Assembly (NCBI GenBank): GCA_948485625.1 | Contig: CAOMRW010000010.1 | Coordinates: 25 to 64,024 of the forward strand | Direction: 5' to 3' | Origin: an uncultured Clostridia bacterium | GTDB lineage: Bacteria; Bacillota; Clostridia; TANB77; CAG-508 | Length of the DNA: 64,000 bases | Shown: positions 34,688-39,486 of the stretch, one piece after another | Position numbering within the stretch: the first letter of the stretch is position 1 | Layout: every line of letters starts with the position of its first letter | Made by a program: the position numbers and the translations under genes | The notes under the pieces: generated by a model | What the model was told of the DNA's origin: nothing | Database searches by the model: none | The model's input: only the letters and a program-made list of their open reading frames with translations

Positions 34688-35951
34688 TTATTTAATATAT
34701 AATGCTATACGATAACCAAAATCATATGTTGTTGAATTTGGATAATCACTTGCTCTAAATGATGCTGGTTTTTCATTTCCATTACTTGTACAGCTTCCTC
34801 CTCTAAAGAAACGACATCCACCATCTCTATTTTCTCCTTCCATAACCCATTCCGATGCATTTCCTGCCATATCGTATATATTTTTTTCTTTGTATTCTTC
34901 ATTTGAACCGGTGTTAATTAATTCTGAATTGTTATAATTTCCTTTTTGGCTACTGTTTCTTACATATGATGTTTCTCCACAATTTCCATTTATATAATTT
35001 TTATCAAAAAATTGCATAGTTGCATCCCATTGTACTCCATAACACAATGTACTTTTTACACTTGAATATCCTTTTAAATTAGCAAATTCTTTTGAACTTT
35101 CTGCTACTCCTCCTGTACCAACAGTCATATTTTTTGAATTTCCCCATGTTACTTGATTATGGACTTTTTTATTCTTCTTTACTAATACTTGCTCATTTTC
35201 TTTTGATGTTTCATATCTTCCAATATAAAAACCTTTATTTAGTATTACACTTTGTTTCATTGCTTCATATTCTTCTGTTTCTGTACTATATCCATCAATA
35301 TATGGTTCTGAATAATTATATGATTCCTTTTCTAACATTTTGCCTGTTTCCATTTGTATACCCCTCTACAGTGTAAAAATCATTAATGTCTGTTACTGGC
35401 ACCCATACAAATTGATTTCCCTTTGATATAATATTATTCGGGTCAATTTCTGTATCTTGTGGATTATCTGAAATAACTAATCCTTCTGATACCTCTTCAC
35501 AACCTGGTACTATACAAAATCCTACTGGTATTATAGCTGTTCCATTTTCTTCATATTCCAGATTTTTCCCTGTTATAATTGTTCCAGCATTAGGATAATT
35601 TACAACTTTAATTGTTCCTGTTGTTCCAATTTTTATTTTATATTCATCTATCTCTATTGTATGTGGTAAACTTTCGATTGGTAATTTAGTTTTTAAACCA
35701 TCTACATTTTGTAAGTTGTTGTTTAATTCACTTAGATTAATTTTTCCATCTACATCATAGCTTGCCATAATTACTAATTGTATTTTTTCTTTTACCTCTG
35801 CTTCATTTGTTTTTTGTTTTGCTTCTTTTGTTCTTCCAAATAATCCACTTCCTGTTAAACTAGCTATTGAGATTCCTGCTAAAATTAAAAGAATTATTAT
35901 GGTTATTACTAGTGCTATTAGTGTTATTCCTTTGTTTTTCTTTTGGTTCAT
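34688..35951 (-). pseudogene. Pilin-like-leader protein with C-terminal FGE-sulfatase (SUMF1/C-type-lectin-fold) domain, split by a +1 frameshift (ORFs 35316..36014 and 34688..35353)
   Basis: The upstream ORF (likely start MNQKKNKGITLIALV at 35951, AGGAGG RBS) ends …NQFVWVPVTDINDFYTVEGY…*. The downstream ORF has no signal peptide and continues with the FGE domain (GFYIGRYE…DMAGNASEWV…FRGGS…FGYRIALY). The two frames overlap over about 35320-35370. A sequencing error or two separate genes cannot be excluded. Confidence 0.6.
35832..35942. repeat. 111-bp segment identical to 39364..39474, encoding the shared pilin-like leader/TM
   Basis: Read directly: tcttccaaataatccacttcctgttaaactagctattgagattcctgctaaaattaaaagaattattatggttattactagtgctattagtgttattcctttgtttttctt is present in both genes. 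A third copy at about 37915-37985 shows roughly 85% identity. Confidence 0.9.
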
Positions 35952-36060
35952 TTCTTTAATTTTTCCTCCTTTGTTTTTTTCTTTTATTATATGTCTTATT
36001 ATTTTAATACTCAATAAAGCGATTACTTTTTTGTAATCGCTTTTTTACATAAGTTTTATT

Positions 36061-37992: not shown

Positions 37993-38136
37993 TTTATTTT
38001 TCCTCTTTCTTCTTTAGTTTTTATATCTATAATTGTATATATTATTATTTCGGAATACAATAAAAGTGATTACTTTTTGTAATCACTTTTTGACATAATA
38101 TTATAATTAAATTTTTACTCATTTATCTACGAAGAT

Positions 38137-39486
38137 TTATTCTTCACTAATTGAAATTTCATAAATTTCAATTCTTCTTCCAATGGCACCTGAACTGATT
38201 CCCCAAGCACTGTAATTATTTGAAATTTGAACTTTTTCAGTTTTTATAGTATCTAAACTTGATGGAATCCATTCTCCATTCCCATTCGTTAAATCAGTAA
38301 ATACTCCTGAATCATTTATATAACCCATGTAAGGGAAACATGATTCACCTTTCAAAGTAACATTAACAAACTTCCCATAACATTCTGGTGCTATTTCAAA
38401 AACATGATAACCAAAACTGTAACTAGCTGAAGTACTTGAATCCCTATCATATGTTGCAAGTTGTAAAGCGTCTCCATTGCTACACTCTATATTACTATCA
38501 TAATAGTAATTTCCATCACTATCTATACAATTCATCATGCCATTTAAAGTTAAAATTGGATAATTTAGTACACTACTTTTTGTAGCCACTTCTTTAGGTC
38601 CATCATAAATATAATTATTTGCTTTATCATATGCAACTACATAAATTATATAGTATACTCCTTGTTCTAGTTCTGTTACTTCATATTCACCATTGGATGA
38701 TTCGTATTTTAAATAATCTGTTTCTGTTGCTCCCTCATATTTTGTTTTCTCTATTACATAATATTCATATTTGGCTATTCCACTTTCATTATCTTCTGCT
38801 TGTGATTTTATCTTAAATCCTTTTGTTTTTATTTCAGTAATATCTACTTTAATGTTTTTTGGATTTACTTTATCTATATTCTGTATGTTTAACGGCTTTG
38901 TTCTTGTTTCTCCTGCACTGTCTGTTACTGTTACTTGATATTCTTTGTTTTCTGTTATTGTAAATGTTCCATCTTCATTTCTTGTTAGTCCATTTACTTC
39001 TATGTTTGTTATACTTCCGTTTGTTGATTTTGCATTTATTGTTAATGTTATATTTCCATTTGTGTATCCTTTTGGTGTTAATGTATAGTAAAAGCTTATT
39101 CCTTTTATTGGGTCTCCTACTGTTACCTTTAGATTACTGTCTATTGTATATTCATATCCTTTATATTCTCCATTTATCTCAGTATCATTTAATATTGCTG
39201 TTATTCCTTCTAGCTTATTTGCTAATTGTCCATCTTCTCCTGCTAAGCTTTCTAATGTTACATTATTTCCTTTTGATATTTCCTCTATTTGTATATCCAT
39301 TATTGTCATTTCTATTTCTTCTTTTATTTGGGCTTGTTCTGATTTTTCTTTTGATTCTTTTGCTCTTCCAAATAATCCACTTCCTGTTAAACTAGCTATT
39401 GAGATTCCTGCTAAAATTAAAAGAATTATTATGGTTATTACTAGTGCTATTAGTGTTATTCCTTTGTTTTTCTTGTAAAATTTCAT
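38137..39486 (-). CDS. Pilin-like-leader protein with Ig/FN3-like domains and an uncharacterised C-terminal domain
   Basis: N-terminus MKFYKKNKGITLIALVITIIILLILAGISIASLTGSGLFGRAKE, identical to the 35951 paralog. FN3-like segment: ESGIAKYEYYVIE…YYIIYVVAYDKANN. Confidence 0.75.
   Translation of the reverse strand: MKFYKKNKGITLIALVITIIILLILAGISIASLTGSGLFGRAKESKEKSEQAQIKEEIEMTIMDIQIEEISKGNNVTLESLAGEDGQLANKLEGITAILNDTEINGEYKGYEYTIDSNLKVTVGDPIKGISFYYTLTPKGYTNGNITLTINAKSTNGSITNIEVNGLTRNEDGTFTITENKEYQVTVTDSAGETRTKPLNIQNIDKVNPKNIKVDITEIKTKGFKIKSQAEDNESGIAKYEYYVIEKTKYEGATETDYLKYESSNGEYEVTELEQGVYYIIYVVAYDKANNYIYDGPKEVATKSSVLNYPILTLNGMMNCIDSDGNYYYDSNIECSNGDALQLATYDRDSSTSASYSFGYHVFEIAPECYGKFVNVTLKGESCFPYMGYINDSGVFTDLTNGNGEWIPSSLDTIKTEKVQISNNYSAWGISSGAIGRRIEIYEISISEE
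39364..39474. repeat. Second copy of the 111-bp identical leader cassette
   Basis: See 35832..35942. Confidence 0.9.

Follow-up and report, generated by a model that had tools for sequence, protein, structure and literature searches.

The window analysed here is a stretch of 64,000 nucleotides (nt), positions 25-64024 of contig C10 (CAOMRW010000010.1) in a metagenome-derived assembly of an uncultured Clostridia bacterium (GCA_948485625.1; 89 contigs, 1.89 Mb, ~25% G+C), a genome in which sporulation genes are present. On its reverse strand, between positions 34688 and 39486, lie three neighbouring genes for candidate modular type IV pilins, which we call A, B and C (coordinates without a contig name are those of the window, and the genes and their features are on the reverse strand unless stated otherwise). 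Their products share the N-terminus (K/N)KG↓ITLIALVITIIILLILAGISI, where the arrow marks the bond that a prepilin peptidase is predicted to cut. In all three proteins a leader of 6-8 residues is followed by Gly, and residue +1 is Ile and residue +5 is Ala. Glutamate at position 5 (Glu5) is held to be nearly universal in bacterial type IV pilins and is central to models of subunit docking and of charge neutralisation in the pilus core (PMC10191384). Behind the N-terminal module, each of the three proteins carries an extra domain which is not specific to type IV pilus biology, as do modular pilins as defined by Raynaud et al. 2021 (PMC8179133).

Gene A (38137..39486) encodes a protein of 449 amino acids (aa) which, by open reading frame (ORF), AlphaFold2 and Foldseek analysis, consists of a pilin-like N-terminal module, two Ig/FN3-like domains and a C-terminal beta-sandwich. 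The protein begins MKFYKKNKG↓ITLIALVITIIILLILAGISIASLTGSGLF. The leader MKFYKKNKG (39460..39486), with the predicted prepilin-peptidase cut after Gly9, aligns with those of Geobacter PilA-N and MshA such that the Gly-1 residues coincide. It is followed by a hydrophobic alpha1-N segment of 21 residues, ITLIALVITIIILLILAGISI (39397..39459), which carries Ala at +5 and was modelled as a helix. The rest of the N-terminal module (39103..39396) was modelled by AlphaFold2 as an alpha1-C helix (residues 38-71), two short helices and a four-stranded sheet (98-126). In the model of the whole protein, with a predicted local distance difference test score (pLDDT) of 84, helix 10-25 and helix 38-71 are separated by a poorly modelled break at residues 26-37. 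The cargo (38140..39099) was resolved by AlphaFold2 and Foldseek into two Ig-like domains (130-201 and 210-301) and a beta-sandwich of ~145 aa (305-447) without a family match. Pfam gave weak matches only for this cargo, to DUF7743 and fn3, and more than 3552 unnamed homologs of gene A were found. The full-length model matched Ig/FN3 adhesins such as SiiE in a Foldseek search; as a test of pilin identity this search was set aside, because it returned only such adhesins and was uninformative on the N-terminus.

Gene B (36061..37992) encodes 643 aa, in which a pilin-type leader and an N-terminal module of ~150 aa precede ~460 aa of BspA-type leucine-rich repeats. The protein begins MNNKNKG↓ITLIALVITIIILLILAGISINTL (MNNKNKG↓ITLIALV...). 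As in BspA-type surface proteins, its repeats match LRR_5 (BspA type, PF13306; E=1e-104, in 6 matched stretches), and there is a partial match to the NCBIfam adhesin model HupY/LrrG (2e-27). Known BspA-type proteins are reported to use Sec signals and other anchors, whereas the repeats of gene B hang on a pilin-type N-terminus.

Gene C (34688-35951) is one gene broken by a frameshift into two halves, 35316-35951 and 34688-35365, since its intact homologs, single ORFs of 419-443 aa that are ~50% identical to it, span both parts. The 5' part (35316..35951, 211 aa) encodes the leader MNQKKNKG↓ITLIALV... and the N-terminal module up to a premature stop, and aligns to residues 1 to ~230 of the intact homologs. 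The 3' part (34688..35365), which lies in the +1 frame and aligns to their C-terminal half, encodes an FGE-sulfatase / C-type-lectin-like domain (PF03781, 21.5 bits against a cut-off of 23.3). Precomputed PF03781 matches are carried by many of the intact homologs, and the domain is treated here as a putative fold-level relative of formylglycine-generating enzyme. The frameshift zone (35319..35365), bounded by stops at 35366-35368 in the downstream frame and 35316-35318 in the upstream frame, holds GGGG and AAAA runs. Phase variation at this site was judged unlikely, because the runs are only 4 nt long and because a superoxide dismutase gene nearby is frameshifted away from any homopolymer. The original prediction, which had been made by a model from the letters of the DNA alone, had described three tandem paralogs sharing a leader with Ile+1 and Ala+5; the leader is indeed present in all three, but the third gene proved to be split. 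The domains that it had assigned were right in outline, as B matches LRR_5, A shows Ig/FN3-like domains and C matches FGE-sulfatase weakly.

Comparison of the sequences shows the N-terminus of these proteins to be homologous to the N-termini of pilins. We built a profile from the first ~130 residues of gene A and its relatives and searched it against all PDB sequences (E<=1). Nine of the ten matches were type IV pilins; the best was Geobacter PilA-N (2.7e-5), and MshA, PilE1, PilA5 and others were also found. In the alignment the basic leader and Gly-1 are in register, and Ala5 stands opposite Glu5. Against the Pfam N_methyl model (PF07963; cut-off 21.2 bits), the N-termini of A, B and C score 20.5, 20.0 and 21.3 bits, respectively.

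The window was said in the original prediction to hold no PilB, PilC or PilD genes. This was borne out, and the matches of the genome to these genes sit on other contigs. The broader statement that there is no pilus machinery nearby is true of the window only, as a complete and intact type IV pilus cluster is present on contig C19. This cluster encodes PilB (T2SSE, 350 bits), PilT, PilC (T2SSF, 98 bits), a PilM/N-like protein, two small membrane proteins, a PilD-like protein and two minor-pilin-like proteins, of which one has Asp at +5 (KG↓LTGID). The major-slot pilin of the cluster, MKSQKG↓ITLVALVITIIILLILAGISIASLTGSGLF (C19:22633-22851), is 72 aa long, carries the same leader as A, B and C and scores 22.6 bits with N_methyl, above the cut-off. 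No pilin with Glu+5 was found in the source genome. A distinct pathway of processing and assembly, which had been offered as one explanation of the unusual leader, is unneeded, as the same leader occurs in the major-slot pilin of the genome's own operon and in three other families of the order. As a side observation, the 72-aa pilin is essentially an alpha1 helix, like Geobacter PilA-N, and the slot pilins of same-genus relatives are 143-154 aa long.

The search for prepilin peptidases was extended to the whole genome, together with that for the pilus ATPase, and both were found. The PilD homolog within the C19 cluster (C19:21770-22567) keeps the Cys-rich N-terminal domain (A24_N_bact, 106 bits). 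At the GxGD region, in-cluster homologs from another family of the order read PFGMGDIKY, and the C19 homolog reads YTYSLLMII. It was ruled out as the processing enzyme by this missing GxGD motif, and its N-terminal domain may be the only part that still functions. A separate, intact A24 peptidase of 250 aa (70 bits), a peptidase-only protein with both Asp motifs, is encoded on contig C29 (C29:11272-11607), where it adjoins pepP, and is presumably the peptidase for these proteins in the source genome. The PilD homolog on C19 and the A24 enzyme on C29 look as if they had divided between them the two activities of the prepilin peptidase/methyltransferase, which is normally bifunctional. In several same-genus genomes a second A24 match has stop codons.

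The three genes belong to a much larger set. The source genome has 45 genes with this leader, scattered away from the pilus cluster, and residue -1 is Gly in 35 of them, Ala in 10 and nothing else. At +5 the 28 full-length leaders have Ala (26) or Val (2). Codons vary synonymously at nearly every position of these 28 leaders, such that Gly-1 is written with three codons and Ala5 with four, while the amino acids stay fixed; judged from this codon usage, selection thus acts on the leader peptide and not on the DNA. Uniformity of the leader at the DNA level was rejected as a general explanation, as paralogs differ at synonymous sites throughout and only A and C share identical DNA. These two genes are identical over ~125 nt (39360-39484 and 35825-35949), from the basic leader to GLFGR, and then diverge, which suggests recent gene conversion, duplication or module swapping at the leader. 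The C-terminal domains of the paralogs include LRR_5, LRR_8, DUF285, F5/8 type C, GLUG, FGE-sulfatase, fn3 and H-lectin. The expectation that one shared pilin-like leader underlies a modular family of surface proteins is supported, with 45 members counted and varied C-terminal domains.

Several of these paralogs are no more than fragments (32-100 aa). A frameshift at ...TVTKI/YGAPFNG... is common to two paralogs of gene B (C20:24123-26016 and C25:13992-15888) though their nearby DNA differs, and was therefore inherited through duplication and not produced by an assembly error. Such findings raise the question of whether the locus in the window is decaying, A, B and C being leftovers of the birth-and-death turnover of the family that contribute little, and the frameshift of gene C being real and inactivating. 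The broken gene C, the superoxide dismutase gene 4.6 kb away that is likewise frameshifted, the several paralogs reduced to fragments and the frameshift inherited by the two gene B paralogs all point in this direction. However, A and B are intact long ORFs with expression signals of their own, and the frameshifts could be assembly errors in a metagenome-derived genome. We regard decay of the locus as highly improbable.

We compared the source genome with 30 relatives and fetched pilus clusters from 12 of them. The number of genes with the leader ranges from 0 to 55 across these relatives, whose genomes measure 1.2-2.4 Mb. Within the window's own family, all 23 sampled genomes with PilC or PilB have 4-55 such genes, and the 3 genomes without the machinery have none or one weak match. 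The genomes G003 and G004 are the only same-genus genomes without the gene family and also the only two of 31 genomes without PilC. PilB is likewise absent from G004 and from G085, which belongs to a sister genus, is 100% complete and has zero genes of the family; G004 and G085, two of the three genomes without machinery, are 97-100% complete. The gene family and the pilus machinery are thus present together and absent together.

This pattern bears on a plainer explanation, that these are type II membrane proteins in which a pilin-derived N-terminus now serves as an uncleaved signal anchor and in which the loss of Glu5 reflects release from the constraints of assembly. The original prediction had rated such anchors as equally possible. 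That parity did not hold, as the restriction of residue -1 to Gly or Ala and the joint loss with the machinery make anchors less likely, though they are disfavoured only. A mere anchor needs no Gly or Ala at exactly -1, nor Ile-Thr at +1/+2. Nor would it call for the 21 near-invariant residues that purifying selection maintains in thousands of proteins. Moreover, this Ala5 sequence recurs in the pilin encoded within the pilus operon, and genomes that have lost the pilus machinery have lost the family as well. The plain-anchor explanation does draw on the absence of Glu5, on the lack of support for a pilin fold from structure search, on the missing catalytic motif of the in-cluster PilD homolog and on the scattering of the family genes away from the pilus cluster. 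On balance, we consider it quite improbable.

Replacement of Glu5 extends beyond the source genome. In families f1, f3, f4 and f5 of the order, small pilins of 114-196 aa, sometimes in tandem, occupy the major-pilin slot beside PilB/PilC. Their N-terminal sequence is G↓I(S/T)LIAL.ITII, in which residue +5 is Ala or Val. In the sister family f2 the pilins are canonical, KG↓FTLVELIIVIAIL...P (G↓FTLVEL...P22). Genomes of this Glu5 family carry only 3-4 pilin genes each, and it is the Ala5 lineage alone that has undergone the expansion. All these subunits of the lineage have Ala in place of the usual Glu5, save one minor pilin per operon. In every Ala5-type pilus cluster examined (loci L015-L026), residue +5 is still Glu or Asp in exactly one minor pilin (YSLIEIG..., FTGIDI..., VFVLEI...). 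One acidic-+5 minor pilin per operon is the reverse of the usual pattern, in which one subunit lacks Glu5.

The leader is conserved over a wide range of proteins. Among 90 leaders from other species, Gly-1 was found in 88 (Ala in 1 and Thr in 1), Ile+1 in 89, Thr+2 in all 90 and Ala+5 in 88. Among 143 matched leaders from the 146 best representatives in the library, Gly-1 was found in 137 (Ala in the other 6), Ile+1 in 141 and Ala+5 in 136, Thr+2 being required by the matching pattern in this set. The leader profile matched at least 19,895 clusters (50% identity, E<=1e-10) in a library of 1.84 billion proteins. When 300 genomes were sampled evenly across the class, matches occurred only in genomes of this order. 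The record titles of the carriers name uncultured gut Clostridia of humans, mice, rabbits, chickens and sheep, and Clostridium sp. CAG:389 and CAG:343. Few of the homologs bear names ('hypothetical protein', 'FGE family protein' and one 'PilA') and most are unnamed; none of the homologs listed has a precomputed match to PF07963.

From these data we consider it likely that A, B and C belong to the modular type IV pilins, and that a prepilin peptidase cuts them and the pilus machinery brings them to the surface. That they are processed in this way and handled by PilB/PilC we infer from three observations: the signature at the cleavage site, a leader identical to that of the in-operon pilin, and the joint loss with the machinery. 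Since varied binding domains sit on an N-terminus that is used by the genome's own pilus subunit, the three proteins are probably pilus-dependent surface adhesins. Each of them would start with a class III (prepilin) signal, continue through an alpha1 helix into a small N-terminal module and end in the binding domain grafted onto it. The hydrophobic N-terminus would insert the protein into the membrane, where the A24 prepilin peptidase would cut after the Gly (or Ala) at -1. The single PilB/PilC/PilM-N-O machine of contig C19 would then pull the subunit out of the membrane and expose it on the surface of the cell, where it would most probably form the tip of a pilus or short pseudopilus, or sit sparsely along the filament. 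The filament itself would be built from the small pilin with the same N-terminus.

Several findings weigh against this interpretation. The Glu5 residue, near-defining for bacterial pilins, is absent from A, B and C, and the NCBIfam pilin models give weak matches only (E ~0.01). When the modelled N-terminal module was compared with PDB structures by Foldseek, no pilin and nothing significant was returned (best E 0.43). Because of this result, the pilin fold is suggested only by the order of secondary-structure elements in the models of the module (pLDDT 78-84), in which a helix at 8-35 / 38-71 is followed by the four-stranded sheet at 98-126. The in-operon pilin of the source genome is only 72 aa long, and the PilD homolog of the cluster is without the catalytic GxGD motif. 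The orphan A24 peptidase is retained in G003 and G004, which have lost both the machinery and the gene family, and is therefore not dedicated to this family. Finally, a frameshift interrupts gene C, and several of the paralogs exist only as fragments.

The final location of the proteins may be long pili, most plausibly their tips, or short pseudopili, or a bindosome-like layer. A tip location has been proposed in the literature for bulky modular pilins. In the bindosome-like arrangement, the proteins would be cut by the prepilin peptidase and would depend on PilB/PilC, but would form membrane-proximal or cell-wall-spanning assemblies and no long pili. This arrangement fits all the genomic evidence as well as modular pilins do. 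It would accommodate the dozens of diverse cargo proteins per genome that are set against a single machine, as well as the very short in-operon pilin; archaeal class III substrates are likewise without Glu5 and offer a precedent for assembly other than filaments (PMC3047682). On the other hand, the operon has PilT, PilM/N/O-like genes and minor pilins, as expected of a retractile pilus, and the slot pilins of same-genus relatives are of normal size. We therefore regard display without long pili as unlikely and retain modular pilins as the preferred interpretation.

Modular pilins with grafted adhesive domains are known from Streptococcus sanguinis, where PilB carries a vWA module and PilC a lectin module, and have been reported to be widespread (PMC8179133; PMC9934059). 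In the proteins described here, as in these, a bulky adhesive or ligand-binding domain follows a class III signal and a small pilin module, and both groups occur in a monoderm Firmicute with a PilB/PilC/PilD/PilT-type machine. However, in S. sanguinis the pilins have Glu5 and there are two of them per genome, both encoded in the pil locus, whereas here residue 5 is Ala and the genes are scattered, with 45 per genome and up to 55 in relatives. The published survey of modular pilins picked proteins by the IPR012902 motif (PMC8179133), and it probably missed the Ala5 family, since the listed homologs have no precomputed PF07963 match. Modular pilins as such are already known; the Ala5 lineage and the scale of its expansion appear to be undescribed.

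Two other systems are comparable in part. The minor pilins GspK/PilK are, like A, B and C, pilin-like, large and without Glu5, and sit at the filament tip, where there is no subunit above to pair with (PMC10191384). In known systems it is only this capping subunit that does without Glu5, whereas here all subunits do so, including the small major-slot pilin, except one minor pilin per operon. The sugar-binding proteins of the Sulfolobus bindosome are, again as here, diverse extracellular proteins that have a pilin-type signal, do not require Glu5 and undergo a type IV-filament-like assembly (PMC3047682). The bindosome, however, is archaeal, with the PibD peptidase, a dedicated Bas system and solute-binding cargo, whereas the present proteins are bacterial and adhesin-like in their cargo, and are accompanied by a canonical PilB/PilT/PilC cluster.

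An abundant natural Ala5 lineage that comprises both major-slot and cargo pilins would be a ready-made test of whether the salt bridge is necessary. We tentatively extend the argument to the whole of this order of uncultured gut Clostridia with small genomes, as a possibility that we would not yet favour: the type IV pilus may work there without the salt bridge between Glu5 and the N-terminus, one machine may display dozens of interchangeable cargo pilins per genome (~2% of genes), and cargo may be reshuffled by recombination at the leader. If so, the pilus would be the main route by which this clade exports and anchors its surface proteins. Recognition of these proteins as pilus-dependent would also reclassify much of the predicted adhesin repertoire of common gut Clostridia.

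At the locus itself, A, B and C look like separate transcription units. Each of the intact genes A and B has its own ribosome-binding site, promoter-like site and terminator, and a hairpin followed by a T-run is also found 3' of gene C. Upstream of gene A, a sigma-70-type promoter sequence, TTGACA-17-TATAAT (39566..39594), agrees with the consensus at 12/12 positions, and is a consensus match only. A common cassette of promoter and 5' leader was rejected for the three genes, as their upstream regions align only in the A-rich ribosome-binding region; the similarity between A, B and C starts at the codons of the basic leader.

Divergently from gene A, on the forward strand, lies a gene for an XRE-type helix-turn-helix regulator of 62 aa (39684..39872; HTH_3, 49 bits). 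For the candidate operator box ATTGCAGGTKGT, no copy was found here with 0-1 mismatches, and matches with 2 mismatches were at chance level. Beyond the regulator gene is the Fe/Mn superoxide dismutase gene mentioned above (39924-40527, reverse strand), in which a frameshift outside any homopolymer, near 40140-40155, splits the Sod_Fe_C domain into two ORFs.

Terminator-like hairpins follow gene A (38062..38090) and gene B (36019..36040). The two are copies of one GATTAC hairpin with a compensatory change in the stem, and together read G(T/C)GATTAC-A5/6-GTAATC(A/G)C. The sole further copy of this element in the genome, at C23:20880, lies just upstream of another gene of the family.

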